DNA of 64,000 nt, from contig CALVNE010000001.1 of assembly GCA_944349515.1 (NCBI GenBank), positions 9,703 through 73,702 on the forward strand. Reading direction: 5' to 3'. This stretch comes from an uncultured Clostridia bacterium. GTDB taxonomy: Bacteria > Bacillota > Clostridia > Christensenellales > UBA1242. This document shows, piece by piece, positions 2,631-52,761 of this stretch. The position numbers and the translations under genes are program-made. Position 1 is the stretch's first letter, and every line of letters begins with the position of its first letter. The notes beneath the pieces are model-generated. The model worked only from the letters and a program-made list of their open reading frames with translations, ran no database searches and had not been told where the DNA came from.

Positions 2631-5600
2631 TTAGTTTGCTAAAGCTGAATAAAATATATCAACAATTGATTGGTAAAGAGATTCTCCAAAAATTTTCAAT
2701 AGTGTTTTAAACGATACATTTTTTATAGAACCATTTTTTAACTTAGTAAAAATTTGCTTTGAAATAGCACTCCAACTTCCTCTTCCGTAAGTTATTCCCT
2801 TGATAGCATATTTTATGTTAACTATTCCAGTAAATGCCATCGACAAAACTCCTGCAAATGCACTGCTTAGCAAGGATTCACCAAAATTAAACTCTGTACC
2901 ATAAATCCAATGACTGAAGACATCTGTGAATAAGTTTGTAAAGAATCCTGATATAAAGGCAGAAGCATATGTTCCAGCACCAAATACATATGAAAAAGCT
3001 CCTCCGACAAAACCGCCAACAACACTTCCTAAAAACTCGGCCCAATTCCATTCCCATTTGCCTGTTGTTACACCCTTGATAACAACTGAAGCAGTGTAGG
3101 ATACAGCACCAACGGCGGCACCTATTGCTGCTGCAATTAACAATCCAATTAAGAACGATATAAAATAACCATTTTCATCAACTTCATTTACAGGATTGTT
3201 TAAGCAATAGGCATAAAGGTTTAATCCATTAAGTGTAATTTGAGTAATATCTAGGGTGGAGATATCATCGGCATTTACAAATCTTCCTAATTGTGGGTCA
3301 TAGTATCTACTATTCAAGTAGTATAGATTTGTTTCGAAATCGTAGTAGTATGAACGATAACGGAATGGATTTTTGAATGCGATGAAACGATTGATTATAC
3401 TTGTGTCATTATAGCTATAATCACTATTGATTATACCATAAGTTCCATCATCTTGCAAGTATTTTACAATACAATTTCCCCAAGCATCATATTCATAGCG
3501 TGCAATTTCATCGCCTGATGTCGAATAAATGCCAATAATATCGTTTTGGGCATTTTTCTTATAATAGAAATCATCATCGACAAGGTTATTTTTAAGGTGG
3601 AAACCAGTAACACCATCGGCAGCATAATAGAATATTAAGTCATTACAGCAATCGTGTTGTTTAATTATTTTATTTCCATTTAAGAAGAATGATGTTGTGA
3701 ATGTTCCATTGCAATCGCAATCTTCTTTACCACAATTGCATTCCAACATACTTACTTTTATTGCTTTGCTTGTTCTTATCCCATTTGCATTATATTTATA
3801 TTCAGCAACATCTGCAAATTTGTCAAGTTGTCTGCCATGCGACCAAAGGAGAGTTTTATCACGATAGGTTGTTGGATTACCAAGAGCATCATAAACAAAT
3901 TTTTCACCATTATATGCTAATAATTGATCTTTCCAGCCATTAGAAGAGTATGAGTAGTCAAAAGTTCCAGTTGGAGTTTCGAAGTCAAGATTGTCTGAAA
4001 GTGTGAAAGCATATTCGTTTCTTTGAGTAATATTTCCACCAGCATCATAAGAGTAAGTATAGGTTTTATTAAACAAAGAGTTATCTTCTCTAATTATTCT
4101 AGAAAGTGCGTCATACTTATAACGTGCGAGAAGTTTGTTGTTTTCTCTAATTTCTGTGATATTGCCTTTCTTATCATATTTATATGTAAGATTGTCCTTA
4201 TTTACATCACCAATAGCAAATTGAAGTTTGGATACAAGATTAGAGGTATGATCTCCATTTTTTAGGTATGTAAATTGTTTCACATAATCTTCCGTTTGAA
4301 TATTCTTAACCCTTTGAAGTTTATCATAATAAAGTGTTTGTTCAATTCCATTTGGAAGTGTAATGGTGTTAAGTTTAGCATCAGGAGTCTCATCTCTATC
4401 GTACTCGTAAATCAATGTTTCGTCACCAATTTTAATAGTAGATTTTTGAATATTCCTATGGCTACTGTCCATTTCATTTTCAATACTAATTTTACTATTA
4501 TGTTGGGTATTTGTTTCTTTGATAGTATTTCCAAATTTGTCATAGAAATAAGAGTGCTCATTTGATTCGGCTGTTTCAGGTTTATCTATAAAGTCTTTTG
4601 TTTTAATAATATTTCCATATGTGTCATAAATGTTTTCAACAAGTGTTATTTCTTCTGCATTTTCGTTTGGTTTGTAGTAAGTGTTAAGAACATCACCATT
4701 ATCATTGAAGGTTTGACGATAAATCTCATTCGAAGCGAGAGAAGTTATTTCTTCATTTTCTCCATATTCTTTCGTTAGATATTCATTTCCTGCAATATTG
4801 ATTTGTTTGATTCGACCTTGCTCATCGTAATCGTAACCAATTTCAAAATCATTATGTTTTAAAGAAGTGAGAAAATCGAGGTTATATCCATAGGTGTTTG
4901 TGTTTTCAATACCGTCTGTTGTAATAGAAGTTTCAAGAAGAGTATCATCAGGGGAGTAACCGTAGGATGTTTTAACACCATTCTCATCAATACTTGAAGA
5001 AATTATTCCTGTTCCATTAATATATTCATAGGAAGCTGTTTCTTCACCTAATTCGTTGATAGATGCTGTTTCTTTCCCTTTTTCATCCAATTTTTTCTCT
5101 TCGTAAAATTTGTTGGTTAGTTCATCTTGATGATAGGTAATGGTTTTAATAACAACACCTTGATCGTTAAAAACATTTTCTTTAACAATACCATTATAGT
5201 CGATTGAACGAAGAAGTTTACCCTCTTTGGTATATTCAAATGTAGTTATATAGTCTTTGTTTTCTGCTATGTTTGTTATAATTTGTTTGCAAGGATTTTT
5301 TGTTTCTTCATTTTCATATTCATAGGTTATTATGAAATTGCTATGCGCAGAATAATTTTTTATAGGACGTTTAAATGAGTCATAATCGGTTATTTCAAAG
5401 TCTGCTTGTTTAAAGGTTAAATCAGTGAATATAATATCTCCAGTATTGCCAGAGTAGTCAATATAGCAGTTAATGCTTTCAATGGTTTTATCTTCAAGAA
5501 TAAGAGGAAGACTACAATATTGCCATTCAGTATTGCGCCAATCAAATTGTCTAGCAAATTTTCGTATGTTTGCATCATTTTGATAAGTTATTTCTGCACG

Positions 5601-8267
5601 AATTTCAAATTTACGATTGTTTATATAGTCAGGGTAAATATTATTTCCATTATTATCCTTTGTTTGTTCGTCGGTTATAACAAATGCAGAATCAGCTTTT
5701 GCCCAACCAGAAACCATGAAGGCTCTATGTGAACAATTTGACTCATTATTTACAAGTTCTTTATTTAATTCATCAATACTTATAGGTGTCATTAAAACAC
5801 TTATAGCCTTAGTAGTTTCTGATTCTTTGATTTCATAGAACTTTGCATTTACTTCATAATTAAATGGAATAGTTGAAGCGGAGCATACTGCATCAGCAGT
5901 TCCAAGATAAAAACCATTTTCAATTGTTTTTTCATTTTCTTTAAATGCAACATCTTCAAGGTAATTCTTTGCATAAGGAAGAGAATTGACTTTCATATTG
6001 ATTTTGTTATCTTGATATGTAAATTCTTTTGCTTTAAAGTTAATTTCATCATTGTCCAAAGAGTTTTCATTGAAATTATTTTCGTATATAGTTCTTACTT
6101 TTCCATATTTATCAAAAAGATAAGTGACTTGCTTATTCTTACTATTAGATAATGAAGTAGATTTATAGTTTTGATAACTGAAATTAATTGATTTGTCAGA
6201 AATTTTGTAAGAAGAGTAATCATTATTTGAAAAATCTAAACTCTCAAAAGAGAAATTTTCATTATTGATTTTTTTATAATTGATTACATTATTTCTTATA
6301 TTGTCTAAAAACGATATCATTGATGCATTTGAAATTTTATTTTTGTCATAAGAGAACTGAACTCCTATACCTGTTTGATTTAAAGCAGCTTGCAAATGCT
6401 TTTCAGATGTTTCCTGATCATCATTATTTGGTGTATCAATATAGTAATAATAAGATTTATTATTATCAAGATGCTCAATGTTTTGTAAGATATTCGTTTC
6501 ATTATAGTTGAATTTGACTTTTCTATCTCTAGCGTCTGTAATTTCTGTCAACAAATTGTTTTCATAATTGAAAATTATAGTTTTTTCATTACTATCCATT
6601 ATGCTTTCAATTTTGTTTGAATCAAGCGAGTTATAGGAAAAATAAATTGTATTTTCATACATATCCATAATAAGGACTAATCTAAAAACATTCAAATCTC
6701 TTGTTTTTCCAAAGCCATAAAAAATATTGTCATCGTTATAAAGATAATGAACTGGAACTTGCATTTCATATTGCTCTTTTTGATGATTATATTTAGATAA
6801 TTCATTTTCAATTTCATCGAGTTGTTTTTTTAATAGTACTAATTGATCTTTATAGTTATTTATTTGAACAGCTATATTATAAAAGTTATTATCGTTATAA
6901 GTATAAAACAATCCAAAATTATTTTTTTCGTTATCGGAAAGATTTAATTTTTCTTTAAAGTAGGTTTGTCTATCATTGCTAGCATTCATATATTCATTAA
7001 ATATTTCAGAAATTACATCTTCTTCATCTGTATTAGCTCCATATTCAAAATAACTTTTGCCAACAAAAGCTAATATAGTGTTTTTAAAAACATTTTCATC
7101 AATGGATTTTTTATAGATACGATCATAAGCTTCTTCTTCTAAATCGCTAAGATTTTTACCAGTATAATCAGTATCAAAATTATATTTTTCATTATTACCA
7201 TTAGCTAGTAAATTAATAGAATTTGCACTAGCCTCATCAACAGGATAGTTACTAGAATATGTTGATATGTTATTATTTAAAGAAATATATTTTGAAATGG
7301 CCAGCAAACAAAGTTGTTTTTGATAATTATAAATATTTTGTTTATAGATGTCTTTTTGTTCTTCTAATTGCTCAATTTGTCGTTTTAAATTTGCAAGTTC
7401 CTCTGGTTCATAATCAACTAAGTCAGAACCTTCAAAATCTTTAATAGAAGAAATAAGTTTAATGCCAGATGGTGCTTCAAGTTCTGTTTTGACTTCTTTA
7501 TTATTATATTTTAGGTTTCCATCTAAATCAACTGTGATTTGATCTTTTTCAATAAAATGCTTTGTATTACCATCATCAGTATAATAGTATTTTTCTTCAA
7601 TAATTTGGTTTTTGCCATTTTCATCTATATATGTATAACTTGTTTTATCATTTTCAGTTTCATTTTTTATTAAGAATTGGTTTACATTTAAGCTCCATTT
7701 TTCAGGTAATCCAATATCAGGAAGCTTTGTGTTTTTAGTAGCATTATAGTTTGCACTTATAGAAGTTGGTAAGACATTTTCATCTGAAGAAATAAGAGGA
7801 GTCTTAATATTTAATTGTCCTGTCGCAAGATTTATACTTGCATTGCCTGCCTTTCCTAAATCAATTTTATGAGAATTTCCATTACCTTGATATTCTTCGA
7901 GCGAAATGTAATCAATAGAAAGATTGCTTTCAGAATTAATAAAGATAATTTCTCCATTTCCAATAAAATCTAGATTTAGTTTTGCATTTAAATCAATAGA
8001 ATTTTGTAGTTCGTCGCTTATGTTAATACTTAAATTACCAGCAGATATATTTTTTATTGTATCAACATTATTCCAGCTTGCAAGTGTATTAGTCCCTTTT
8101 TTTGCGGAATAGTTGACCATAAGGTCATTATTGCTAGAAACACTAGCAATTTTTACATTTAAAATTGCATCAACAACTTTGATGAATTTTAGGTTGTCTG
8201 GTATTGTAATCTCAATATGATTACCAGACAAAGCAATGTTATTAGCATTGATTTTAAAATTTTTCAT
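2631..8267 (-). CDS. RHS/YD-repeat polymorphic toxin with hydrophobic glycine-zipper C-terminal domain
   Basis: Many YD repeats (YDALGNPTTY, YEYDAWGN, YKYDALSR...). RHS core end is RYYDPQLGRFVNADD ... YAYCLNNPVNEVDENGYF. The last 177 aa (about 2634-3164) are G/A/S-rich hydrophobic helices. GGAGAAG RBS. Confidence 0.9.
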   Translation of the reverse strand: MKNFKINANNIALSGNHIEITIPDNLKFIKVVDAILNVKIASVSSNNDLMVNYSAKKGTNTLASWNNVDTIKNISAGNLSINISDELQNSIDLNAKLNLDFIGNGEIIFINSESNLSIDYISLEEYQGNGNSHKIDLGKAGNASINLATGQLNIKTPLISSDENVLPTSISANYNATKNTKLPDIGLPEKWSLNVNQFLIKNETENDKTSYTYIDENGKNQIIEEKYYYTDDGNTKHFIEKDQITVDLDGNLKYNNKEVKTELEAPSGIKLISSIKDFEGSDLVDYEPEELANLKRQIEQLEEQKDIYKQNIYNYQKQLCLLAISKYISLNNNISTYSSNYPVDEASANSINLLANGNNEKYNFDTDYTGKNLSDLEEEAYDRIYKKSIDENVFKNTILAFVGKSYFEYGANTDEEDVISEIFNEYMNASNDRQTYFKEKLNLSDNEKNNFGLFYTYNDNNFYNIAVQINNYKDQLVLLKKQLDEIENELSKYNHQKEQYEMQVPVHYLYNDDNIFYGFGKTRDLNVFRLVLIMDMYENTIYFSYNSLDSNKIESIMDSNEKTIIFNYENNLLTEITDARDRKVKFNYNETNILQNIEHLDNNKSYYYYIDTPNNDDQETSEKHLQAALNQTGIGVQFSYDKNKISNASMISFLDNIRNNVINYKKINNENFSFESLDFSNNDYSSYKISDKSINFSYQNYKSTSLSNSKNKQVTYLFDKYGKVRTIYENNFNENSLDNDEINFKAKEFTYQDNKINMKVNSLPYAKNYLEDVAFKENEKTIENGFYLGTADAVCSASTIPFNYEVNAKFYEIKESETTKAISVLMTPISIDELNKELVNNESNCSHRAFMVSGWAKADSAFVITDEQTKDNNGNNIYPDYINNRKFEIRAEITYQNDANIRKFARQFDWRNTEWQYCSLPLILEDKTIESINCYIDYSGNTGDIIFTDLTFKQADFEITDYDSFKRPIKNYSAHSNFIITYEYENEETKNPCKQIITNIAENKDYITTFEYTKEGKLLRSIDYNGIVKENVFNDQGVVIKTITYHQDELTNKFYEEKKLDEKGKETASINELGEETASYEYINGTGIISSSIDENGVKTSYGYSPDDTLLETSITTDGIENTNTYGYNLDFLTSLKHNDFEIGYDYDEQGRIKQINIAGNEYLTKEYGENEEITSLASNEIYRQTFNDNGDVLNTYYKPNENAEEITLVENIYDTYGNIIKTKDFIDKPETAESNEHSYFYDKFGNTIKETNTQHNSKISIENEMDSSHRNIQKSTIKIGDETLIYEYDRDETPDAKLNTITLPNGIEQTLYYDKLQRVKNIQTEDYVKQFTYLKNGDHTSNLVSKLQFAIGDVNKDNLTYKYDKKGNITEIRENNKLLARYKYDALSRIIREDNSLFNKTYTYSYDAGGNITQRNEYAFTLSDNLDFETPTGTFDYSYSSNGWKDQLLAYNGEKFVYDALGNPTTYRDKTLLWSHGRQLDKFADVAEYKYNANGIRTSKAIKVSMLECNCGKEDCDCNGTFTTSFFLNGNKIIKQHDCCNDLIFYYAADGVTGFHLKNNLVDDDFYYKKNAQNDIIGIYSTSGDEIARYEYDAWGNCIVKYLQDDGTYGIINSDYSYNDTSIINRFIAFKNPFRYRSYYYDFETNLYYLNSRYYDPQLGRFVNADDISTLDITQITLNGLNLYAYCLNNPVNEVDENGYFISFLIGLLIAAAIGAAVGAVSYTASVVIKGVTTGKWEWNWAEFLGSVVGGFVGGAFSYVFGAGTYASAFISGFFTNLFTDVFSHWIYGTEFNFGESLLSSAFAGVLSMAFTGIVNIKYAIKGITYGRGSWSAISKQIFTKLKNGSIKNVSFKTLLKIFGESLYQSIVDIFYSALAN

Positions 8268-8320
8268 GTATTCTTCTCCTTTTAATTATTGATTACATGA
8301 AATATTTTAATTCTCAAAAA

Positions 8321-8367
8321 TTCTAATGCCGTCTAACTTTTGCTAATTAGTGCTAATTTTTGCTAAT
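8321..8367 (-). promoter_or_regulatory. Helically phased heptamer array (TGCTAAT) upstream of the RHS gene
   Basis: TGCTAAT starts at 8341, 8351 and 8361 (perfect) and TTCTAAT at 8321 (6/7). Weaker copies lie at 8311 and 8331. All are in exact 10-bp register, 54-100 nt upstream of the RHS ATG, and overlap the 3' end of the regulator gene. Confidence 0.4.
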
Positions 8368-8739
8368 GTTGCGGTCTTTTTTATTCAAATCTTCAAGTAT
8401 TTTATTAATAGCTTCATTATGCAGTTGATAAATACGTTTTGTAGAATAGCTCATTCTGTCGGCAATTTGGTCAAATGTTAAAAAAGTTATGTATTTTAAA
8501 TACATCAAAGTTTTATATGGTTGATTGAGTGTTTGAATAAGGGATTCTATATGTTGTTTTTTATGTAAAATCAATGCTATTTGTTGCTTTTCATAATTTA
8601 TAGAATCGTCAAAGAAATTTTTGGCATCAGTGTTAGCTAAGTAATTATTTGTTGTCATTATTTCTTTTGATTTTTCTTTTAAATATTGATTATCATACCA
8701 ATAATCCTCAAATAATGATTTTAATTCTTCCTTGGTCAT
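8353..8739 (-). CDS. ArpU/RinA-like (sigma-70 region-4-like HTH) transcriptional activator
   Basis: The C-terminus LTFDQIADRMSYSTKRIYQLHNEAINKI looks like a sigma region 4 / phage late-activator HTH. GGAG RBS lies 8 nt before the ATG at 8739 (internal Met of listed ORF 8353..8799). Confidence 0.55.
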   Translation of the reverse strand: MTKEELKSLFEDYWYDNQYLKEKSKEIMTTNNYLANTDAKNFFDDSINYEKQQIALILHKKQHIESLIQTLNQPYKTLMYLKYITFLTFDQIADRMSYSTKRIYQLHNEAINKILEDLNKKDRNISKN

Positions 8740-8802
8740 ATAAAACACTCCTTTTCTACAATTTGATATAATTATATCAATTTGTAAATAAAAAATCAAG
8801 CA

Positions 8803-8846
8803 AAAATTCTACAAATTGTGATAATTATAGCAAAATGTAGAATTTT
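8803..8846. promoter_or_regulatory. Operator-like inverted repeat in the divergent regulator/XRE promoter region
   Basis: AAAATTCTACA (8803-8813) / TGTAGAATTTT (8836-8846) is a perfect 11-bp IR. A third TTCTACAA(A)TTG half-site lies at about 8753-8764. Confidence 0.4.
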
Positions 8847-8911
8847 TATATCAAAATAGAATTGCATAATCTTGAAAACTATGGTAAAATAATATAGAAA
8901 TGGAGTGTATT

Positions 8912-9226
8912 ATGGAAATAGGCGATAAGATAAGATATTTGAGACGCAAATCTAATATGAATCAGACTGAACTAGCCCAGAAATTAGGAGTAGTGACATC
9001 TACAGTGGGATTTTGGGAGACAGGAAGGAGACAGCCAGATTTAGATGCAATAGTAAAAATTTCTGAAATTTTTAATGTATCAACTGATTATTTGTTAAAT
9101 GATTATAATGATAATACAATTGTAATTCTGGGTAAAGCAGGGACACATAAAAATATTATAGTGTCAGATGATCAAATAAATTTAATAGAAAATTTCATTG
9201 AGTCCTTAAAACATAATGATGAATAG
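8912..9226 (+). CDS. XRE-family HTH repressor (ImmR-like)
   Basis: IRYLRRKSNMNQTELAQKLGVVTSTVGFWETGRRQPDLDAIVKISEIFNVSTDYLL is a canonical Cro/CI HTH. GGAG RBS before the ATG at 8912. Confidence 0.85.
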   Translation: MEIGDKIRYLRRKSNMNQTELAQKLGVVTSTVGFWETGRRQPDLDAIVKISEIFNVSTDYLLNDYNDNTIVILGKAGTHKNIIVSDDQINLIENFIESLKHNDE

Positions 9227-9866
9227 TAATAAGATTAGGTTATTAGGAAGAACAAGGGAAGATTTAGCGTTTTTCACAGAAGATGAGAGTTTAATAAACT
9301 ATGAGCAGATAGATAGTATTGTTAACTCATTTATGATAAAAAACGATTTAAAAATTTTGCCAATTGATGTTGTTGAATTATCTAATAAAAATGGTTGGCT
9401 CTTGGCACCATATTCAAAAATACCTAAAAATATATATCAACTTTATGAGGATATTATATATACAGATCTGGGGTTTACTGTGTGTTACAATGGAGATTAT
9501 ATAATTTTTTATAACGACAATATTGATGTTTTTACTCAGAGATTTACTGTTGCACATGAAATAGGTCATATTGCATTAGAGCATTTTGTAAATTCAGATC
9601 CTAGAACAAGAGAAATCGAAGCAAATACTTTTGCTGCAAAAATGCTTATGCCATTAAGTATTATTAAAGCTTGTGAAGTAAAATCTATATATGAGATTGA
9701 AAATCTATGTGGAGTAAATTATTCAATTGCGAAACAACGTTACACATATTTATTAAATGCTAAAACTCATAAGGGAAAAGAACTAAACAAGCAATTTAGA
9801 AATTTTATTAAAAACTACAAAACAAGACATAATTTGACAAAAATGTATAAAAATCCGTCTACATAA
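9216..9866 (+). CDS. ImmA/IrrE-family zinc metallopeptidase (anti-repressor protease)
   Basis: HExxH motif (VAHEIGHIALEH). Overlaps the stop of the upstream XRE gene, the classic ImmR/ImmA arrangement. Confidence 0.85.
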   Translation: MMNSNKIRLLGRTREDLAFFTEDESLINYEQIDSIVNSFMIKNDLKILPIDVVELSNKNGWLLAPYSKIPKNIYQLYEDIIYTDLGFTVCYNGDYIIFYNDNIDVFTQRFTVAHEIGHIALEHFVNSDPRTREIEANTFAAKMLMPLSIIKACEVKSIYEIENLCGVNYSIAKQRYTYLLNAKTHKGKELNKQFRNFIKNYKTRHNLTKMYKNPST

Positions 9867-9894
9867 AAATTTTGATTTTGCTAGAATTAGTGTT

Positions 9895-10137
9895 ATGAAG
9901 TCGATTGATGCTATAAGGATTCGATTAAAGCAATTAATAAAGGCTAATGGCACTAATTATAATGATTTGGCACATAAAAGTGGAGTTACAGCATCTACAA
10001 TAAAAACTATTTTTTATTGTAAGACGGCAAAGTCAACAACGGTTTATACCATTTCTCTAATTTGTGGCGGATTAGGTATGACAGTGTATGATTTTTTTAA
10101 TGATGATATATTTAAAGATGTTGATGATTTAGAATAA
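9895..10137 (+). CDS. Small XRE-like HTH protein
   Basis: 80 aa. NGTNYNDLAHKSGVTASTIKTIF is an HTH-like segment. Confidence 0.55.
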   Translation: MKSIDAIRIRLKQLIKANGTNYNDLAHKSGVTASTIKTIFYCKTAKSTTVYTISLICGGLGMTVYDFFNDDIFKDVDDLE

Positions 10138-10164
10138 ATATCATTAAGTGATATTTATTTTTTT
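10136..10164 (+). terminator. Rho-independent terminator
   Basis: AAATATCA / TGATATTT stem, TTAAG loop, then ATTTTTTT. Confidence 0.55.
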
Positions 10165-10204
10165 ATATAAATAGACGGATTTTTATATATTTTTTCGAAA
10201 TATG

Positions 10205-10213
10205 TGATATAAT
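10205..10213 (+). promoter_or_regulatory. Extended -10 promoter element (TGATATAAT) 6 nt upstream of the ATG at 10220
   Basis: Perfect TGnTATAAT. No Shine-Dalgarno between it and the start codon, which suggests a leaderless transcript. Confidence 0.4.
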
Positions 10214-10219
10214 GCTCAT

Positions 10220-13105
10220 ATGAAAATCAATAAGGCAACAATTGTTGAGGTTGATGACTACAGTATATTTAATATTGCTGATTCAAAAGCAATTGTTATT
10301 ACTGCAACTCAAAATTTAAAGAAAAATGAAATATTTTCATCTGCACATCGTGTAGTTTCTTTTGCAGATTTAATTAATGAAGCACAAAATTATGTTGATT
10401 ATACAAAGTGTATTAATAATACCGAATTAAGATTTTTGATTAATAAGGCTATTGTTACACTATTTGATGGGGAAAAGCAATTAGCTTATAAAAATAGTAT
10501 TTATGGGCTTGAAGATTTATATAGTTTGCTTTTATTGAACAATATTTCTGCTCAAAGCATCAATATTGATTTTAACGAATATTCTTTTGTTGAAAAGGAT
10601 ATTTTTACAATTTATAAATCTGTTTGCACTAATTTACAGCAATTTAAACAAGATATATTAAAAAGTGCTCTTATAAAAAATGCAGTTAATATATTGAAGG
10701 AATATGATACAGTTGTGTTTGTCGGATTTGTCTTTTTTAATGATATGCAAGAATGTTTGATTAAAAGCTTAAACTCAAAAAATTTAGTATTTATTAATAA
10801 ACATAGTGACTTTATATCATCAGAGTTATTAAAACCTCTATTGCTAGGTTTGGGTTATAATATAGAACAAAGAAAAATTGCAGGAAAGAGAGATGGATTT
10901 TTTAACCAACTAGAAGATAATATTTTTACTCAATCTAAAATAAATTTAAAAACAGAAGATGTAGATAAAATTAAAATCTACGAACCATTTTCTAGTAGAG
11001 AAGAGGAGTTTAAATTCATTGCTAAACAAATTTCTGATAAAATAAAAATCTTAAATCCAGAAGTTAATCAATTAAATTCTATTTTAGAAGATTTTGCAAT
11101 AGTGATAACAAAGAATAAGGACGAGTTACTATTTATTCTTGATGATGTTTTTAGTGAAGTGGGAGTATTTGTTCCTAAAGACACTTTTGATGGTTGTTTA
11201 AAACCAATTTATTATGAGAAGCAAAATTTTTTGAATGAAGATATAGAAGTGAAAGGTAGGAAGTTAGGTTATATAGATAAGTTAAAATTATTTAATGATT
11301 TTAAAAGGATTTCGTTTATAGGATATAATTCAACAGAGTTTGAAACAACATTTGGAAAGTTTATAATTTCTATATACAAAGTCGTCGCTAAGGATTTGGA
11401 TTTGGATACCTTTAAATTATTACTGGAAACACAATGGAATCTAGATAAAAAATTTGAAGAAAATATTTTGACTGATTTTCATTATATAGAAAGTTATTTT
11501 GAACAACTTAAAACTTTGGCACAATGGAAAGAATGTGTAAATAAACTTATTAAATTAAAATCAAATATTAAAAATGAAGAAAATTTTAAAGCACATCCTT
11601 TACACAAAGTGCAAAAATCCACGCTAATATATATTCAAAAATTTTTAAGTTTTATAGAAGCGCTAGTTAATAAACTTAAAGTCAATGGGAATATAAAGCA
11701 ACACATTAAACTTTTAATTAGTGTGTTTAATTTAAACAAAATTAAATTAAATACAAGTGAAGATAAGCAGGCGATAGAAATATTGTTAGATGGTTTAAAT
11801 AAAGTGAAGTGCAATGATAGTATAGAAGTAGATTATGTCTATTTTGCCGAAAACATAAAAGATTTACTATCTCAATGTTTATATGTTGAAAATAAGAAGA
11901 AAGATGATTATAAGTTGGCAGTAGTAAATATGGAAAACTATACAAAGTATGATTATGTTTACTTTCCGCTGTTTGAAGAAAATAAATATCCAAGGATTTT
12001 AAAAAATGAATTCCCATATACAAATGATATTATTGAAATTCTGCAAAAGTTAAATCTTTCCATTCAGAAAAATTATATGATGGATTATCACTTAAAAATG
12101 TCAAGGCATATTTTTAAAAATTTATTTGGTTTTGTTGAAAAACAAATAACATTTACCTATATTTGTAAAGAAAATAACAATTATATGGATATTTCAAATT
12201 ATGCGTATGAAATACAAAAAACGTTAAATTCAAGATTAATTTTTGAAGCATCACACTCAAAACTAAAAGAGTATAAGTTAGAAAATAGAGAACTTATTTT
12301 TAAAAATTTTAATGTAAGCAATATTAATCTTAATCAATTGTTGTTGCAATATTTGTGTCCCAAACTATTTGTGTATAATTGTCTTTTCAAAAATAAAATT
12401 AGTTATAGCGATAAATTTTTACTAGTTTTTTATGCAAAAGCTTTAATAACAAATAGATTTTTTACAAATTTAGGGAGAAGTAGTAAAAGATACAATCTTA
12501 ACAGCAAGGAGTTTGGACAGGAAGTTGATAAGACTTATTTTAATTCATTACTTTCCGTTTTAAAATATTTTGAAATGTTAGGAGAAAATGAAAAAAAGGA
12601 TATTCGTATTACTTGCAGAAAATACATCGATGATTTTATAGAACTTCATTTTAAGAGTGGTAAATTCTCTTGTAAAAATTGTAAATTTAAAATTGGCAAA
12701 AGAAAAGTTATACTTGATAAATTCAATGTTTGCACGAGAGAAACATTGATTATGCTAAACCTTGATACAGGACAAGAAACAGAATTTGATATTAGTAAAA
12801 ATTTGGATTTTTTGGTTAATAGCAGTGGTGGAAAGAAGTTTGATTTCAAACACTTTGATGAGTTAGTGTTTCAACTAGAACATGGAAGTAAATTTGATGA
12901 TAAAACTGCATTGATAAACTTTATTAGTTTCAAGCTAAATACTCAGTTAAACCATAAAAAGTTTTATCAAGATGGAATTAAAAGAATATCAAAAATTATA
13001 AATAATACAAGTACAATATACAGTAACATGTGTGATTCGCCATCTAGTTATTGTAGGTTTTGTATATTGAAAGATATTTGTAAAGGATCATTAATCGATG
13101 AATAG
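10220..13105 (+). CDS. AddB/Cas4-like PD-(D/E)XK nuclease with Fe-S cluster cysteines (inactive-helicase-like N-terminus)
   Basis: C-terminal domain has YLCPKLF ... CRFCILKDIC (Cys + C-x2-C-x5-C, the AddB/Cas4 cluster pattern) and ILDKF...KFDFKH (D...DxK-like). No Walker A in the N-terminal 700 aa. Its stop overlaps the start of the helicase gene by 8 nt. Confidence 0.6.
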   Translation: MKINKATIVEVDDYSIFNIADSKAIVITATQNLKKNEIFSSAHRVVSFADLINEAQNYVDYTKCINNTELRFLINKAIVTLFDGEKQLAYKNSIYGLEDLYSLLLLNNISAQSINIDFNEYSFVEKDIFTIYKSVCTNLQQFKQDILKSALIKNAVNILKEYDTVVFVGFVFFNDMQECLIKSLNSKNLVFINKHSDFISSELLKPLLLGLGYNIEQRKIAGKRDGFFNQLEDNIFTQSKINLKTEDVDKIKIYEPFSSREEEFKFIAKQISDKIKILNPEVNQLNSILEDFAIVITKNKDELLFILDDVFSEVGVFVPKDTFDGCLKPIYYEKQNFLNEDIEVKGRKLGYIDKLKLFNDFKRISFIGYNSTEFETTFGKFIISIYKVVAKDLDLDTFKLLLETQWNLDKKFEENILTDFHYIESYFEQLKTLAQWKECVNKLIKLKSNIKNEENFKAHPLHKVQKSTLIYIQKFLSFIEALVNKLKVNGNIKQHIKLLISVFNLNKIKLNTSEDKQAIEILLDGLNKVKCNDSIEVDYVYFAENIKDLLSQCLYVENKKKDDYKLAVVNMENYTKYDYVYFPLFEENKYPRILKNEFPYTNDIIEILQKLNLSIQKNYMMDYHLKMSRHIFKNLFGFVEKQITFTYICKENNNYMDISNYAYEIQKTLNSRLIFEASHSKLKEYKLENRELIFKNFNVSNINLNQLLLQYLCPKLFVYNCLFKNKISYSDKFLLVFYAKALITNRFFTNLGRSSKRYNLNSKEFGQEVDKTYFNSLLSVLKYFEMLGENEKKDIRITCRKYIDDFIELHFKSGKFSCKNCKFKIGKRKVILDKFNVCTRETLIMLNLDTGQETEFDISKNLDFLVNSSGGKKFDFKHFDELVFQLEHGSKFDDKTALINFISFKLNTQLNHKKFYQDGIKRISKIINNTSTIYSNMCDSPSSYCRFCILKDICKGSLIDE

Positions 13106-15086
13106 TCAATTAAATACGATAATAGCAAGTGCCGGAACTGGTAAGACAGAAACAATCGTAAGCAAAATAGAAAGTTTAATTATAGAAAAACATGTTGACA
13201 TAATGAATATTGTGTTGATAGCTTTTACTAATAAAGCAACGAAGGAAATGAAAGAGAGGTTAAGACAAAAACTATTGATGCAAGCATGCTATAGTAATAA
13301 ACTTCGAGATCAAATAGATAAGATAAACATGGCTTCAATTTGCACCATTCACTCCTTTTGTGATGATATAATAAGAGATTATGGACTTAGAATTGGAATA
13401 AGTCCAAATTATAGAATAGATTCGTTTAGCTATGAAACAAATTTAATTTTAGATAAAATTGTAAATGAAAATTATAATGAAAAAATTTGCTCTAAAATAC
13501 CTACATATACCATAAAAGATATGTTGAAAAATTTTTATAAAGAAATGAAAGATAAAGGAATTAAGTATGAATTAAGCTACAAATTAAATAAGATGGATTT
13601 TTGGAATGAAGTTAGGCAATACATTAGTGATTTATATGAAAAGCTAGATGAAGAAATAGAAAAAGAGAAAAAAGAACTTAATATTTTGACGCACAATGAT
13701 CTTTTATGTTATGCAGCAAGATTAACGAGTGAAGAAGGCATCGCTAAAAAGATAGCAGAAAAAGTTCAATATTTGTTTATTGATGAGTGTCAAGATATTA
13801 ACTTATACCAAATGGAGTTAATAGAAAATCTAATGAAATTTATTAACATTACAATAGTTGGAGATGAAAAACAGTCTGTATATGGTTTTAGAGGAAGTAA
13901 TAAAAAAGCTTTTATCAACCTTATAGAAAAATTTAACAATTTTGGTGGAAATAGCACAATAAATGATATTAATTTTCGCACAAGCTCTACTTTAATAAAG
14001 GTTATTAATGATATTTTTAATTCAAAATTTTATTTTCACAACAGTTTATTGTCATTCAAAAATATTCCTTTGGTAGCTTATAAAAAAGATTCAGAACTTG
14101 ATGTGTTTGAAATAACGTATGGGAAAAATATTGTTGATGTTGTAAAAAGTGTGGCACAAAATATTGATTTTGATGATAAAGCATGTAATAATTATATTGT
14201 AATCTTATGCAGAACTAATAGGGAGGTTAGTGATGTAGCAAACAATTTAAAGCAACAGAATATCAAAGCACAAGTTTATTCAGCAAAATCAATATTTAGA
14301 AGTAAAGCAATAATAGATTTATGTAAGGTTCTTCGTTATTTGAGTAGAAATGACAACATTGAAAAATTTGAAATATTTTTTACTGATTATTATCTTGCTT
14401 GTATTAAATTTTTTACTGAAAGTCATTTAGACAATGTTTTAGATGGTTTAAAGTATGAGATTAAGAACCATCCATTGACCTACATAATCAATAGATTATT
14501 TGAAACAACAAAGATATGTGAATATTATTCTTGCATTTATAAAGAACAATATAACTCAAATTTAAATAGAATTAAAGAGATAATACGTGACTTATCTATG
14601 CAAGGGCTGTCTAATCTTCAAATAATAGACCATTTAAATAGGATGATAAACACACAACAAAATGAACCAGAATCAGAGGTAGTGTTTGAAAGTCCCATTA
14701 TCATAAGCACAATTCATACATTTAAAGGCTTGGCTGGAGATATAGTCATTTTGTATAATGCTGATAGAAATTTATATAGAGTATCTAATACTCAATATGA
14801 GTATGAAGAAAATGACAATTTAATAAGTTTCAATAAAAACGCTATTGTTTTAAACAATTATGCTGTGGCAGAAGATGAAAATTTTGAATATATAAAGCAT
14901 AATAATTTGATTGAAAGATTAGAAGAAGAGATAAGATTGTTTTATGTAGCTTGTACTCGTGCCAAAAAGAAATTGATAATAATGAATTATAGGAGCAGAG
15001 ATAAACTAAATTATCTAATTGAAAATAATGACGATTATGTATCGTATTATAGGTGGTTGAAGGAATCAAATATAAAATTAAATTAA
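13098..15086 (+). CDS. UvrD/Rep/AddA-like SF1A DNA helicase (no nuclease domain)
   Basis: Motifs ASAGTGKT (I), FIDECQDIN (II), VGDEKQSVYGFRGS (III), INFRTS (IV), STIHTFKGL (V) and LFYVACTRAKKKL (VI). Confidence 0.9.
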   Translation: MNSQLNTIIASAGTGKTETIVSKIESLIIEKHVDIMNIVLIAFTNKATKEMKERLRQKLLMQACYSNKLRDQIDKINMASICTIHSFCDDIIRDYGLRIGISPNYRIDSFSYETNLILDKIVNENYNEKICSKIPTYTIKDMLKNFYKEMKDKGIKYELSYKLNKMDFWNEVRQYISDLYEKLDEEIEKEKKELNILTHNDLLCYAARLTSEEGIAKKIAEKVQYLFIDECQDINLYQMELIENLMKFINITIVGDEKQSVYGFRGSNKKAFINLIEKFNNFGGNSTINDINFRTSSTLIKVINDIFNSKFYFHNSLLSFKNIPLVAYKKDSELDVFEITYGKNIVDVVKSVAQNIDFDDKACNNYIVILCRTNREVSDVANNLKQQNIKAQVYSAKSIFRSKAIIDLCKVLRYLSRNDNIEKFEIFFTDYYLACIKFFTESHLDNVLDGLKYEIKNHPLTYIINRLFETTKICEYYSCIYKEQYNSNLNRIKEIIRDLSMQGLSNLQIIDHLNRMINTQQNEPESEVVFESPIIISTIHTFKGLAGDIVILYNADRNLYRVSNTQYEYEENDNLISFNKNAIVLNNYAVAEDENFEYIKHNNLIERLEEEIRLFYVACTRAKKKLIIMNYRSRDKLNYLIENNDDYVSYYRWLKESNIKLN

Positions 15087-15117
15087 GTACCAAATCAATA
15101 ATGATTGGTACTTTTTT
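15086..15117 (+). terminator. Hairpin + T-tract between the helicase and PAPS-reductase genes (terminator/attenuator)
   Basis: AGTACCAAATCA / TGATTGGTACT (one bulge), ATAA loop, then TTTTTT. Only 12 nt before the next gene's start codon, and this stretch contains its RBS. Confidence 0.5.
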
Positions 15118-15129
15118 AAAGGAGTTAAT

Positions 15130-16731
15130 ATGGAAAATTTTATTTATTGGTGTAATCAGTGCAAAGTGCCAATTATTAAAACCGAAAAGGGTAATTTTAA
15201 TTGTAGGTTATGTAATGAAAAATTGAAATATATTTCAGTAGATCTTAGACCTGTTTTTCCTCAAGAAAAAATAATGTTAGAATTATTACTAGGAAAAAAT
15301 TTTAGAGATATACCCATTTGGAAGGGTAGGTCCAGGTATTATGTTGATGGAATCCCTTTGCAATTATCCAATCAAATGTTATTAGATACTGATAGAAAAG
15401 GTTTGAGAAAAAAACTTTTAAATACAAAGATTAATTATGATAGTTTTAATCATTATATTAATTTATTTATTAAAGCAAATCAAGAACATTATAATGAAAT
15501 AAAAGATGAAGCAGTCAGATATATACAGGAGCAAACAAAAACTTATGTGGATTATGAAAAAATGGTTTCATTTTCAGGTGGGAAAGATAGTACTGTAGTA
15601 TCGGATCTTGTTATAAAGGCGTTTAATGATAAATCAATAAAACATTTATTTGGGGATACAACCTTAGAACATAGATGCACATATGAATATATCAAACGTT
15701 TAAAAAGAAATAAATTAATAAACCTACATATAGCAAGAAATACTGATAATAACTTTTATGATATTGCGAAAAAGATAGGGCCACCATCAAGAGTGTCAAG
15801 GTGGTGTTGTTATATGTTTAAAACTGGTCCAGTGAATAGATTGATGACTACATTGTTTGGTAATAAAAAAGTTTTAACTTTTTATGGTATAAGAAAAAGT
15901 GAATCAGTTGCTAGGAGTAAATATAAAAGGACAGAAGAAAGTTCAGTGCATAAAAAGATCTCAAACCAGGTTGTTTGTTCTCCAATATTTTATTGGAAAG
16001 ATATTGATATTTGGCTTTATATTTTTACAAATAATCTTGATTTTAATGAAGCATATAAATTGGGTTATTCAAGAGTGGGGTGTTGGTGCTGTCCAAATGC
16101 ATCAGTAATTTCAGAATTTTTAGCTAAAATCTATATGAAGAAGGAATACGAAAGATGGTATCATTTTTTAATAAATTTTGCAAGAGCTATTGGGAAAGAA
16201 AATCCAGAAGAATACATAAATACAGGAGGTTGGAAAGCTAGACAAGGTGGAGCAGGACTTGAAGAAGCTAAAAGTGTTAAGATAGTTCAGCAAAATTGTA
16301 CAGTTCAAGAAAATGGGAAAATCTATGATTTATCAAAGCCGATAAATGATAGATTTTTTCAATTATTTATTCCATTTGGAAAAGTAATAGATGGGGATAA
16401 AGTTATAAGCGAGAAACTCGTTCTTGATATTAAAACATTAGTTCCAATTATATCACTTCAAAAAATTAGTGATTATAAAATAAAAATAATCACACTTAAT
16501 GTTAAAAATCATAAAAGTCTACATCAAAATATTTTTCATCAGATAATGAAGTTTAATGCTTGTAAGCAATGTTTGAAATGTGAAGGTGTATGTATGCATA
16601 ATGCTATTCATTTAGATAAAGAGGGATATTCAATAGATGAAAAACTATGTAAACATTGTCAAATGTGTGTGTCATCTAAGTATATACCAGGTGGTTGTAT
16701 GATGTGTAGATACTTAAGGACAAGGAGATAA
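15130..16731 (+). CDS. PAPS-reductase/DndC-like PP-loop ATP pyrophosphatase with N-terminal Zn-ribbon and C-terminal 2x[4Fe-4S] ferredoxin domain
   Basis: CNQC...CRLC at the N-terminus. PP-loop SFSGGKDST. PAPS_reduct signatures DTTLEH..TYEYI, YGIRKSES and YSRVGCWCCP. C-terminal CKQCLKCEGVC and CKHCQMC....C. Confidence 0.85.
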   Translation: MENFIYWCNQCKVPIIKTEKGNFNCRLCNEKLKYISVDLRPVFPQEKIMLELLLGKNFRDIPIWKGRSRYYVDGIPLQLSNQMLLDTDRKGLRKKLLNTKINYDSFNHYINLFIKANQEHYNEIKDEAVRYIQEQTKTYVDYEKMVSFSGGKDSTVVSDLVIKAFNDKSIKHLFGDTTLEHRCTYEYIKRLKRNKLINLHIARNTDNNFYDIAKKIGPPSRVSRWCCYMFKTGPVNRLMTTLFGNKKVLTFYGIRKSESVARSKYKRTEESSVHKKISNQVVCSPIFYWKDIDIWLYIFTNNLDFNEAYKLGYSRVGCWCCPNASVISEFLAKIYMKKEYERWYHFLINFARAIGKENPEEYINTGGWKARQGGAGLEEAKSVKIVQQNCTVQENGKIYDLSKPINDRFFQLFIPFGKVIDGDKVISEKLVLDIKTLVPIISLQKISDYKIKIITLNVKNHKSLHQNIFHQIMKFNACKQCLKCEGVCMHNAIHLDKEGYSIDEKLCKHCQMCVSSKYIPGGCMMCRYLRTRR

Positions 16732-16733
16732 AT

Positions 16734-17864
16734 ATGATTAGTTATTTTGATAATGCTTCTACTACTTATAGAAAACCTAAAAGCGTTTATAAAGCGGTAA
16801 AGCTTTATAAAAAAGTTGGTGGTAATATTAGTCGCGGAAACAATCAAGCAAGTAAATTTTTTATAGATGAAACAAGAAAGAATATAAAAAAACTTGTTGG
16901 TGCAAATGATAATTATGAAGTAGTTTTTAGCCAATCCGCAACATTTTCATTTAATCAACTAATTAAAGGACTGGATTTTTCAAAGTTAAAGAATGTGTAT
17001 ATTACAATGTTTGAACATAATGCTGTAAATCGAGTATTATCAAACCTACAAGAAATTTATAAGTTTAACATTAAATATTTGTGTTTAAAAGGATTTTATC
17101 TATCAATAGATTTAGTTAAAGAACAATTTAAAAAAGATAAGCCTGATTTAGTTATTATAAATCATGTAAGCAATGTGTGTGGTTTGATACAAGATTATAA
17201 ACCTGTATTTGAGGAAGCGAAAAACTATGGGGCCATTACAATTCTTGACATGGCACAATCTTGTGGATTACTAAAAATAAATATGTCCGAAGAAAAAATA
17301 GATGCTATTGTTTTTGCAGGTCACAAAACATTGTACGGGTATGTTGGAATCGGTGGTATGGTTATAGATAAAAAATTGAAAATCAAAGACATTATTCAAG
17401 GCGGTACAGGTATAGATTCAGCAAGCATGTTAATGCCTAAAACCTTACCCACAAGACTAGAACCAGGAACACAAAACCTACTTGGTATTTATAGTTTATA
17501 TTATAGCACAAGCTATATTTTGAAAAAAGAGATAAATAAAATTTTTCAAATAGAACAAAAAAAGTTTAGAAAATTGAAAAGGATTTTAATAGATTCTAAA
17601 TTGTTTAATGTATTTGAAATTCCCAATGCAACATCTATAATATCTTGCTTACCTACAAAATATAAGCCTATTAACTTTGAAAAGTTTTTTGATAAATATG
17701 GAATTGTTGTAAGGATAGGATTGCAATGTAGCCCGTACGCACATAAAGTTTTAGGCTCATATCCAGAAGGAACTATAAGGTTTAGTGTAGGTTTATTTAC
17801 AAAAGGTATGGAATTACGCAAACTGAAAAAGTCTTTAAAATGTATATATAAGGAAGTTAATTGA
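16734..17864 (+). CDS. Cysteine desulfurase (class-V aminotransferase, SufS/CsdA-like)
   Basis: YFDNASTT N-terminus, PLP-lysine motif FAGHKTLYG, active-site loop RIGLQCSPYAH. AGGAGA RBS. Confidence 0.85.
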   Translation: MISYFDNASTTYRKPKSVYKAVKLYKKVGGNISRGNNQASKFFIDETRKNIKKLVGANDNYEVVFSQSATFSFNQLIKGLDFSKLKNVYITMFEHNAVNRVLSNLQEIYKFNIKYLCLKGFYLSIDLVKEQFKKDKPDLVIINHVSNVCGLIQDYKPVFEEAKNYGAITILDMAQSCGLLKINMSEEKIDAIVFAGHKTLYGYVGIGGMVIDKKLKIKDIIQGGTGIDSASMLMPKTLPTRLEPGTQNLLGIYSLYYSTSYILKKEINKIFQIEQKKFRKLKRILIDSKLFNVFEIPNATSIISCLPTKYKPINFEKFFDKYGIVVRIGLQCSPYAHKVLGSYPEGTIRFSVGLFTKGMELRKLKKSLKCIYKEVN

Positions 17865-17897
17865 AGATAGATTATTCTATCTTTTTTTATTTTTTTT
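17865..17897 (+). terminator. Rho-independent terminator ending the 4-gene cluster
   Basis: AGATAGA / TCTATCT stem, TTAT loop, long T-tract. Confidence 0.7.
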
Positions 17898-26065: not shown

Positions 26066-26557
26066 ATGGGGCAGAGAGGCGGTTATAGACCAGGTGCTGG
26101 CAGACCGAAAAAATCAGTTACAGAGAAGATACTTGAGGGCAATCCTGGGCGAAGAAAAATTGAAGTGCTTAACTTTGAAGATGGAGATGATATTCCTTTA
26201 GATCCACCAAATTGGTTAACGAAAAAAGGAAAAGATATTTATAAAAATTTGGTTGATTGGTTGGTTAAAATAGGTTGCACGAAAGGGATACTTCCTTACA
26301 ATCTAGAAGAGTATGCCCATTGCAAATCGAGATGGCTTGAAAGTGAAGAAGCAATAAGCACTCACGGTTTCTTGGTAAAAGACAATAGTGGAAAACCGAT
26401 ACCAAATCCTTATGTGGCACTTGCACAACAGTATTTAAAAATGACAAATGATGTATGGGCAAAAATTTATCAAGTTGTGAGAGAAACGAAATTAACGGAA
26501 CTTGATAATTCATCGCCAAATGATGATATTATGGAAAGTTTGCTGAGGGGGAAATAA
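26066..26557 (+). CDS. terS: Terminase small subunit (P27 family-like)
   Basis: N-terminal GGYRPGAGRPKKS...EGNPGRRK is typical of P27-family small terminases. Strong RBS. Confidence 0.75.
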   Translation: MGQRGGYRPGAGRPKKSVTEKILEGNPGRRKIEVLNFEDGDDIPLDPPNWLTKKGKDIYKNLVDWLVKIGCTKGILPYNLEEYAHCKSRWLESEEAISTHGFLVKDNSGKPIPNPYVALAQQYLKMTNDVWAKIYQVVRETKLTELDNSSPNDDIMESLLRGK

Positions 26558-31599: not shown

Positions 31600-31623
31600 C
31601 ACACTTTAATGTGTGTTTTTTTT
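31600..31623 (+). terminator. Weak rho-independent terminator
   Basis: CACAC / GTGTG stem, TTTAAT loop, T8 tract. Confidence 0.45.
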
Positions 31624-31644
31624 ATAGCAAATATGGAGATAAAA

Positions 31645-52675: not shown

Positions 52676-52761
52676 TGGTGCTGGTGGTGGGGGTCGAACC
52701 CACATGAAGTTGCCCTCGCGGGATTTTGAGTCCCGTGCGTCTGCCATTCCGCCACACCAGC
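52676..52761 (-). tRNA. tRNA-Leu (anticodon CAA), class II with long variable arm, CCA encoded
   Basis: Reverse complement is GCTGGTG..GCGGAATGGCAGACGCA CGGGA-CTCAAAA-TCCCG CGAGGGCAACTTCATG GTGGG-TTCGACC-CCCAC CACCAGC-A-CCA. The 7-bp acceptor, anticodon and T stems all pair. Confidence 0.9.

Follow-up and report, generated by a model that had tools for sequence, protein, structure and literature searches.

A prophage operon of gut Clostridia joining an AddB-like/UvrD-like pair to a reduced SspD/SspA-like sulfur pair

What might four adjacent genes accomplish when two of them encode an AddB-like protein and a UvrD-like helicase, and the other two encode enzymes of sulfur transfer? The question is raised by a four-gene operon of 7.6 kb, its genes here called g1 to g4, in the DNA of an uncultured Clostridia bacterium (contig CALVNE010000001.1, positions 9,703 to 73,702); this whole stretch of 64,000 nucleotides is referred to as the window. 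The original prediction, made from the letters of the window, proposed an undescribed system of DNA sulfur modification and restriction. After profile, structure and synteny comparisons, we give even chances to the reading that a temperate phage carries, in this operon, a compact, mobile system that tells self from non-self DNA by phosphorothioation (PT). Five observations form its basis: the domain identities, the synteny of the four genes, a natural fusion of g1 with g2, the membership of g3 and g4 in a PT clade, and the linkage of g1–g2 to three kinds of PT writer.

The four open reading frames (ORFs) are co-oriented and occur at exactly the coordinates predicted (table 1). The expected 8-nt overlap of g1 with g2 is confirmed and g3 is separated from g4 by 2 nt, which suggests two translationally coupled pairs.

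To which lineage does the sulfur pair belong? The g3 protein consists of an N-terminal zinc ribbon, a 3'-phosphoadenosine 5'-phosphosulfate (PAPS)-reductase core (PAPS_reduct, 119 bits), an alpha/beta domain and a C-terminal, cysteine-rich ferredoxin-like domain. Of the motifs claimed for it, the two N-terminal CxxC pairs, SGGKDS (149), GIRKSES and GCWCCP are all present. One of the two claimed ferredoxin motifs is an exact CxxCxxCxxxC (478–488), but the second is inexact, a non-canonical cluster of the form C507xxC510xxC513...C523xxC526. Against the PADLOC profile of BrxP, g3 scores 247 bits over profile positions 17–512 of 779, that is, across the PAPS-reductase, alpha/beta and Fer4 parts; it lacks DUF4007, the C-terminal third of BrxP. 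The PADLOC profiles of SspD and DndC give 51 bits each. On the DndC equivalog TIGR03183, g3 reaches 38 bits against a cut-off of 290, so that the label first given to it, DndC-like, has to be replaced by SspD/BrxP-like. Its nearest relatives outside the cassette, at 43–51% identity, are SspD proteins encoded by the first gene of SspD-SspB(DUF4007)-SspC-SspA-PbeA loci, which are abundant in gut metagenomes.

The g4 protein is a class-V aminotransferase (Aminotran_5, 193 bits; TIGR01977, 326 bits), with the predicted pyridoxal-phosphate (PLP) lysine in AGHK and the predicted active-site cysteine near the C-terminus in GLQCSPYAH. It scores 107 bits on PADLOC SspA and 104 bits on DndA, its best matches in the PDB are cysteine desulfurases, and it is 34–42% identical to the SspA of Fer4-type Ssp-Pbe loci. 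In neighbour-joining trees the cassette copies of g3, and likewise those of g4, form one clade nested among Fer4-type SspD or SspA genes. Judged by these trees, g3 and g4 belong to the PT-writer lineage and are SspD/SspA-like more than DndC/DndA-like. Since each forms a single clade inside the Fer4-type genes, SspB and SspC appear to have been lost once, the reduced pair persisting thereafter; on this phylogeny the loss dates to the ancestor of the four-gene cassette.

Might the pair instead serve a sulfur chemistry unrelated to DNA, thiolating tRNA, making a thio-cofactor or assimilating sulfur, its adjacency to a helicase being incidental? A Foldseek search with the AlphaFold2 model of g3 (predicted local distance difference test, pLDDT, 83) returned generic cores of PAPS and adenosine 5'-phosphosulfate (APS) reductases, that is CysH/APS reductases, together with TtuA, and no solved full-length PT writer was among its matches. 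PHROGs, moreover, places phage PAPS reductases among 'auxiliary metabolic genes'. On the other hand, the CysH models score g3 at 57–73 bits, far under their cut-offs, against the 247 bits of BrxP, and we therefore reject the view that g3 acts as a CysH or in sulfate assimilation. The nearest relatives of both enzymes reside in Ssp-Pbe operons, and the linkage of the four genes survives transfer between phage, integrative and conjugative element (ICE) and chromosome, including variants with altered gene order or fusion. A function away from DNA thus seems to us very improbable; the enzymes with which g3 and g4 group are those of phosphorothioation (Fer4-type SspD and SspA, and BrxP) and not CysH or the enzymes of tRNA thiolation.

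If this is a PT writer, which of its customary companions does it retain? None of DndB/D/E, DndFGH, SspB/C/E, PglZ or BrxC/L has a profile match among the cassette proteins, in agreement with the original prediction. No match to DUF4007 or to SspC/BrxC was found in the four proteins or in their neighbours, while both were readily detected in three of the loci compared (L004, L014 and L024), and neither SspE nor PbeA was matched by PADLOC among the cassette proteins of the window.

What, then, is g1? Neither the full-length protein nor its C-terminal domain matches anything in Pfam, NCBIfam, PADLOC, PHROGs or the PDB sequence profiles; only structure prediction could place it. An AlphaFold2 model built with 14 homologues as input (pLDDT 77; predicted template-modelling score, pTM, 0.62) has as its best Foldseek match over the full length the AddB of Bacillus subtilis (4cei_B, E 2e-15, TMq 0.59); UvrD, RecC and AdnA come next. 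On this model g1 adopts the AddB fold, with an inactivated, superfamily 1 (SF1)-helicase-like N-terminal part and a C-terminal domain of the Cas4/AddB type carrying a predicted iron–sulfur (Fe-S) staple. The AddB/Cas4 cysteine pattern seen in the sequence is real: C713 lies in LCPK and is followed by C945-x2-C948-x5-C954. The lack of a Walker A motif was likewise confirmed. All four cysteines are invariant among the 39–40 full-length members of the g1 family, so the predicted staple is presumably essential; E263, F542 and P591 are also invariant, and D894 is nearly so. The D...DxK-like residues reported for g1 fared less well. The conserved stretch reads FDIS(K/R), which is DxxK with a variable K/R, and it is conserved locally and not family-wide. 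As modelled, g1 may be a true nuclease of the AddB type, or else a scanning subunit that is catalytically dead, like RecC.

How large is this family? An exhaustive profile search of 1.84e9 representative proteins found 145 relatives of g1, 58 of them at E<=1e-30, and never reached canonical AddB. The g1 family is small and separate from AddB. A scan of IMG/VR with the g1 profile found no locus.

The identity of g2 is more readily established. It contains the UvrD-helicase (178 bits) and UvrD_C (101 bits) domains, and it possesses, as predicted, every motif of an SF1A helicase, including the Walker A sequence ASAGTGKT and DECQD, and no nuclease domain. Its best NCBIfam model is AddA (TIGR02785), at 166 bits against a cut-off of 708, and its best match among PDB sequences is the AddA of B. 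subtilis (3u44_A). The AddAB-style pair of the original prediction therefore holds at the level of the fold, g1 resembling AddB 4cei_B and g2 matching AddA best. Among the profiles proposed for the operon, PAPS_reduct, Aminotran_5 and the N- and C-terminal UvrD models all match; PDDEXK_1 fails to match g1. The GajB models of PADLOC also match g2, at 150 bits, and GajA was not found. An identity of g2 with Gabija or with defence-associated reverse transcriptase (DRT) systems was rejected, these matches reflecting generic UvrD-like similarity.

Is the association of the AddB-like/UvrD-like pair with PT genes peculiar to this operon? More distant g1–g2 pairs indicate that it is not. In L024 the genes for SspD, SspB and SspC lie directly downstream of g1–g2; in L026 g1–g2 follows SspC-SspA-PbeA-PbeB-PbeC, a locus of the PbeABCD type; and in L022 it adjoins DndB-C-D-E-A, an ABC ATPase of the CxC type and NERD. 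In L017, g1 and g2 are naturally fused (1695 aa, 8001–13088) beside a PAPS-reductase/Fer4 gene, an ORF like the C-terminal part of SspC and a desulfurase. Ten of the 12 g1–g2 lineages examined are PT-linked, and the two that are not look decayed: L018 keeps the remnant of a desulfurase and in L021 g2 is truncated. As far as L024 reaches (it ends inside SspC), g1–g2 is the only candidate for a partner of the restriction type, a role that is filled by PbeA in L014. Standing beside three types of PT writer, g1–g2 is, we conclude, a PT-associated partner module.

Two of these loci deserve a fuller description. The order of genes in L022 (1–13961) is DndB-C-D-E-A, a small Sp-DndD protein, a CxC/SMC-like ATPase, the distant AddB-like/UvrD-like pair and a NERD nuclease; L022 is a multi-layer PT island. 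In L017 the ORF of 398 aa resembles only the C-terminal third of SspC, and the desulfurase is divergently oriented. The notion that g1–g2 is a mere substitute for SspB and SspC is weakened by L024 and L026, where both sets coexist, and by the DndD and DndE of L022.

Could g1–g2 be an accessory for end processing or repair, resecting or mending the nicks and breaks left by PT writing and PT-dependent restriction, or generating substrates for other defences, without discriminating marked from unmarked DNA? Its AddAB-like architecture would suit such work, as would its company in L022 and L026, where it occurs together with PT-linked effectors (PbeA, CxC-type ABC ATPases, NERD). But the cassette of the window type holds no other effector to be assisted, the host would normally own AddAB or RecBCD, and the g1 family is tiny, mobile and exchanged like a conflict gene. 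We consider this role unlikely.

Do the four genes travel together? The synteny proposed for them is borne out: every close relative has the four genes in the same order, down to 30% identity in g1. They occur in prophage lineages (L001–L003, L007 and L020) with flanks as in the window, in an ICE-like element (L012) with a MobL relaxase and a type IV secretion system (T4SS) coupling protein, and in a chromosomal island (L009–L011), where their neighbours are a PD-T4-3-like gene, a TIR-LRR protein and an IetA-like ATPase accompanied by a trypsin-like protease. The copies outside phages (L009–L012) are 30–32% identical to those of the window in g1, 39% in g2, 51–52% in g3 and 51–53% in g4. The stretch downstream of the cassette in L009 (12856–21632) holds, besides the PD-T4-3-like gene and the IetA-like AAA ATPase (149 bits) with its protease, another AAA protein and the TIR-LRR protein, which is of giant size; these genes are a defence island inserted after mraZ-rsmH-PBP genes.

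Purifying selection acts on each of the four genes: the ratios of nonsynonymous to synonymous divergence (dN/dS) are 0.10–0.19 in the comparisons with enough substitutions, and 0.12–0.16 for g1. In sequence identity g1 is the fastest-evolving gene of the cassette. Where the phage backbones are 98–99% identical in protein, the cassette is only 45–62% identical (L002) or 81–91% identical (L020). In the comparison with L020 the synonymous divergence (dS) of the cassette is 0.43–0.82, whereas that of the backbone gene SNF2 is 0.13. Because the synonymous divergence of the cassette so far exceeds that of its backbone, the cassette has been exchanged as an allele by recombination. Such exchange is typical of conflict loci.

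How might the four proteins act together? In the reading that we favour, the desulfurase g4 would make a persulfide, and g3 would activate the backbone phosphate with ATP and insert sulfur, leaving PT marks on resident DNA. g1 and g2 would form an AddAB-like heterodimer in which g2 is the sole motor and g1 scans DNA in the manner of AddB or RecC and bears a nuclease-like domain with an Fe-S staple. This heterodimer would load on incoming DNA, unwind it, and degrade or otherwise disable it unless it were PT-marked; PT may act on it as a Chi-like or a roadblock signal, as it reportedly does on TdpAB. With SspB and SspC gone from the writer, it is probably g1–g2 that also brings DNA to g3. Superinfection immunity would be the outcome in a lysogen. 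PT synthesis, a g1–g2 complex, the sensing of PT, DNA degradation and protection from phage are what we infer for the four proteins.

Several points weigh against this reading. A canonical PD-(D/E)xK triad was not found in g1, either in alignments of 6, 39 and 40 members or in Pfam scans of distant members. PDDEXK_1 has no match in g1, nor does any sequence model of AddB; sub-threshold matches to PDDEXK_1 and to the PADLOC model of Cas4 occur in other members of the g1 family only, and there only at the end bearing the cysteine motif. With no triad in g1 and no nuclease in g2, the DNA-cleaving effector is putative. The company that g1–g2 keeps with Pbe-type partners in L022 and L026 may mean that it is an accessory rather than a restriction module. 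The phage or ICE could equally use the writer to shield its own DNA. Finally, BrxP, the nearest characterized writer, requires the BrxC/SspC ATPase and DUF4007 (PMC12914056). As both are missing here, g3 and g4 may write PT alone or may need g1–g2.

In another reading there is no restriction arm at all. The four proteins would then be one PT-writing complex, in which g2 stands in for the SspC ATPase and g1 for SspB, and with which a phage or ICE marks its own and its host's DNA for anti-restriction, epigenetic or antioxidant ends. SspB and SspC were apparently lost once in the cassette ancestor, yet g3 and g4 are still under purifying selection; the Ssp and BREX4 writers known so far depend on an ATPase and on a partner that binds or nicks DNA; g1 has no recognizable catalytic nuclease motif; and the phage also encodes two orphan DNA methyltransferases, as is typical of anti-restriction strategies. 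Many Dnd clusters, furthermore, lack restriction partners (PMC10853773). What tells against a pure modification complex is the coexistence of g1–g2 with complete SspB/SspC or DndD/DndE in L024, L026 and L022, the presence of the cassette also in the chromosomal defence island by IetA and its protease, and the rapid evolution of g1, more in keeping with a conflict interface than with a core catalytic subunit. We regard it as possible, if doubtful, and continue to prefer a system that discriminates self from non-self DNA.

How does the operon compare with the systems already known? Four PT systems are established: Dnd, Ssp, Tdp and bacteriophage exclusion (BREX) type 4 (PMC12914056, 2026). Of these, the ferredoxin-bearing SspD subtype of Ssp, found in Clostridia and the gut microbiome, is the phylogenetic home of g3 and g4, both of which fall in its SspD/SspA clade. 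The logic is also alike, a desulfurase and a PP-loop writer with a separate, helicase-containing partner. But the cassette lacks SspB (the DUF4007 nickase/DNA-binding protein), SspC (the DUF6079/BrxC-like ATPase), SspE, SspFGH and PbeA; its partner is an AddB-like/UvrD-like SF1 pair, where that of Ssp is a phospholipase D (PLD)-superfamily 2 (SF2) helicase or a DUF262 protein; and g4 is SufS-like, whereas the SspA of Vibrio is IscS-like. Two human-faecal sequences deposited as 'Bacteriophage sp.' (L004, MT835493.1; L005, MT835506.1) contain a complete SspD-SspB-SspC-SspA-PbeA locus, and a Rep/G2P-like gene is close to it.

With BREX type 4 the likeness lies in g3, which matches the PAPS-reductase, alpha/beta and Fer4 parts of BrxP, minus DUF4007. 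This arrangement is common to BrxP and a subset of SspD (PMC12839542). Experiments show that BrxP and BrxC, with a host desulfurase, are both required and enough for PT (PMC12914056), and a desulfurase often occurs as a sixth component of the system (PMC12914056, PMC12839542). BrxC/PglY, PglZ and BrxL, which score strongly in the control locus L006, are absent from the cassette, and the true BrxP of L006 is only 28% identical to g3. L006 itself (MT835511.1) is another human-faecal 'Bacteriophage sp.' contig and holds a complete BREX type 4 locus; the contigs of L004, L005 and L006 may be plasmids or ICEs, not phages.

The Dnd system (DndABCDE-DndFGH) resembles the cassette in its desulfurase and its writer of the PAPS-reductase superfamily, and a distant g1–g2 adjoins DndBCDEA in L022. 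DndB, DndD, DndE and DndFGH are nevertheless absent here, and g3 remains far below the cut-off for DndC. AddAB, RecBCD and AdnAB share with the pair the AddB fold of g1, with its predicted inactive, helicase-like N-terminal part and Fe-S-stapled C-terminal domain, and the AddA-like character of g2. As in addBA, the two genes are neighbours whose translation appears to be coupled. On the other hand, g2 ends at 662 aa and lacks the C-terminal RecB nuclease domain of AddA, g1 has no recognizable catalytic triad and no detectable sequence similarity to AddB, and the associations of the pair are with PT genes and mobile elements, where AddAB serves housekeeping recombination.

Conceptually closest is TdpABC, reportedly described by An et al. 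in 2025 as a hypercompact PT system of thermophiles, with TdpC as its single PAPS-reductase-like writer and no ATPase of the DndD/SspC type. Its two-protein, ATP-driven partner, the translocase-nuclease TdpA/TdpB, is said to degrade PT-free DNA and to be inhibited by PT. The cassette would share with it a minimal writer and a two-protein, ATP-driven partner, a comparison made by description only. TdpA, however, is reportedly a hexameric ring translocase and not an SF1 helicase, and TdpABC belongs to thermophiles, whereas the hosts of the cassette are gut Clostridia and their phages. No Tdp structure was among the fold or sequence matches of the cassette proteins; PADLOC v2 has no Tdp model, nor any model for g1.

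Has the combination been described before? No named system was found to match all four genes, and no description of the architecture was found, in PADLOC or in our incomplete collection of the literature, so that the word 'undescribed' in the original prediction stands. Full-text searches of that incomplete collection turned up no mention of an SF1/UvrD or AddB/Cas4-like partner of PT systems, and targeted terms located none in two comparative-genomics papers on PT and BREX. Since a new partner family is here joined to a reduced writer, and since the cassette lies outside the membership of Ssp, BREX type 4, Dnd and AddAB, we regard it as a variant of PT-based systems. A bolder proposal, which we offer tentatively, would make it a fifth architecture of PT immunity. 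An AddAB/RecBCD-like machine would read backbone sulfur as AddAB reads Chi; PT would stall the enzyme or switch it off on self DNA, and unmarked incoming DNA would be unwound and destroyed; the same machine would feed a writer free of SspB and SspC; and temperate phages and ICEs would carry and exchange the whole as an allelic cassette.

Where does the operon reside? It had been placed in an AT-rich island beside a prophage. The first part is correct, the GC content being 0.261 in the cassette against 0.334 in the rest of the phage and 0.392 in host genes, and no other part of the window is as rich in A and T. The second requires correction, for the cassette lies inside the prophage, between helix-turn-helix (HTH)/ImmA genes and a LexA-like repressor. 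The same flanks surround it in three other contigs and in two closer relatives, one of them a metagenome-assembled genome (MAG) of Candidatus Caccovivens faecavium with 94–99% identity; these shared flanks show that the locus is within the phage and not adjacent to it. It sits in the lysogeny-control (immunity/early) region.

The window represents a prophage of a spore-forming Clostridia bacterium. To the left of the cassette is a lysogeny module composed of a sigma-like regulator, HTH_3, ImmA/M78 and HTH_26; to its right are the LexA-like S24 repressor, then an SNF2 helicase, a primase and two DNA methyltransferases, and further right terminase, portal, capsid, tape measure and tail fibre. 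The second methyltransferase is fused to a ParB-like domain, and the two are likely to serve anti-restriction or epigenetic purposes independently of the sulfur cassette. Two tandem large serine recombinases mark one end of the prophage, and past the tRNA-Leu that abuts them are the host genes recJ, relA, spoIIGA and sigE. No direct repeat of at least 14 nt within the window marks the left end, as is expected for serine integrases; that end is outside the window, or else unmarked and undetectable. INPHARED contained no related phage backbone. A protein with RHS repeats, encoded just left of the lysogeny module, is kept at the same position in the phage contigs L001 and L003 (41–47% identity); it could be a tail fibre or toxin-like cargo.

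Signals for the expression of the operon can also be discerned. Two flanking terminators had been proposed. AT-rich hairpins with T-runs are indeed visible at both borders, but a consensus terminator scanner, which needs at least three G-C pairs, calls neither. On inspection of the sequence a Shine-Dalgarno element is missing before the ATG of g1, and the extended -10-like element there is possibly the promoter of a leaderless operon mRNA. Upstream of these signals is the gene for the HTH_26-type protein. A homologue with 75% identity lies upstream of the cassette in L002 (4603–4845), and another with 67% identity just downstream of it in the ICE-like L012 (12824–13069), so that this protein is better conserved than the cassette proteins. 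The gene is absent from L001, L003 and L009 and is hence an optional companion of the cassette; its product may be a dedicated regulator that moves with it.

Table 1. Coordinates of the operon and of other features within the window. The two hairpins and the -10-like element are sequence readings.
Feature	Coordinates	Strand	Size	Description
RHS-repeat protein	2631–8267	-	1878 aa	just left of the lysogeny module
HTH_26-type protein	9895–10137	+	80 aa	small DNA-binding protein; PHROG transcriptional-regulator matches
AT-rich hairpin, then T-run	10137–10164	+		plausibly ends the upstream gene and bounds the operon on the left
Extended -10-like element	10205–10213	+		TGaTATAAT; ends 6 nt upstream of g1 ATG
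g1	10220–13105	+	961 aa	AddB-like protein
g2	13098–15086	+	662 aa	UvrD/AddA-type SF1A helicase
g3	15130–16731	+	533 aa	SspD/BrxP-type PP-loop ATP pyrophosphatase
g4	16734–17864	+	376 aa	group-II (SufS-like) PLP cysteine desulfurase
AT-rich hairpin, then long T-run	17866–17897	+		AGATAGA-TTAT-TCTATCT; plausibly the operon terminator
First DNA methyltransferase	26557–28014			
Second DNA methyltransferase	31609–33021			fused to ParB-like domain
Two tandem large serine recombinases	49362–52374		486 + 527 aa	integrases; prophage end
tRNA-Leu(caa)	52676–52761	-		abuts the serine integrases

What does the operon mean for the biology of PT? Occurring next to Dnd, Ssp and minimal writers, the AddB-like/UvrD-like pair is a previously undescribed family of PT-linked partners, and the recognition of backbone sulfur on the restriction side is still poorly understood. 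The SspD-like protein and its desulfurase appear to be a natural minimal writer, with which one may probe whether the functions of SspB and SspC are dispensable or are supplied by an SF1 helicase complex; an operon of this size, with four genes, is directly clonable. If the lysogeny modules of temperate phages of gut Clostridia do carry a PT system, prophages would spread sulfur epigenomes together with superinfection immunity.

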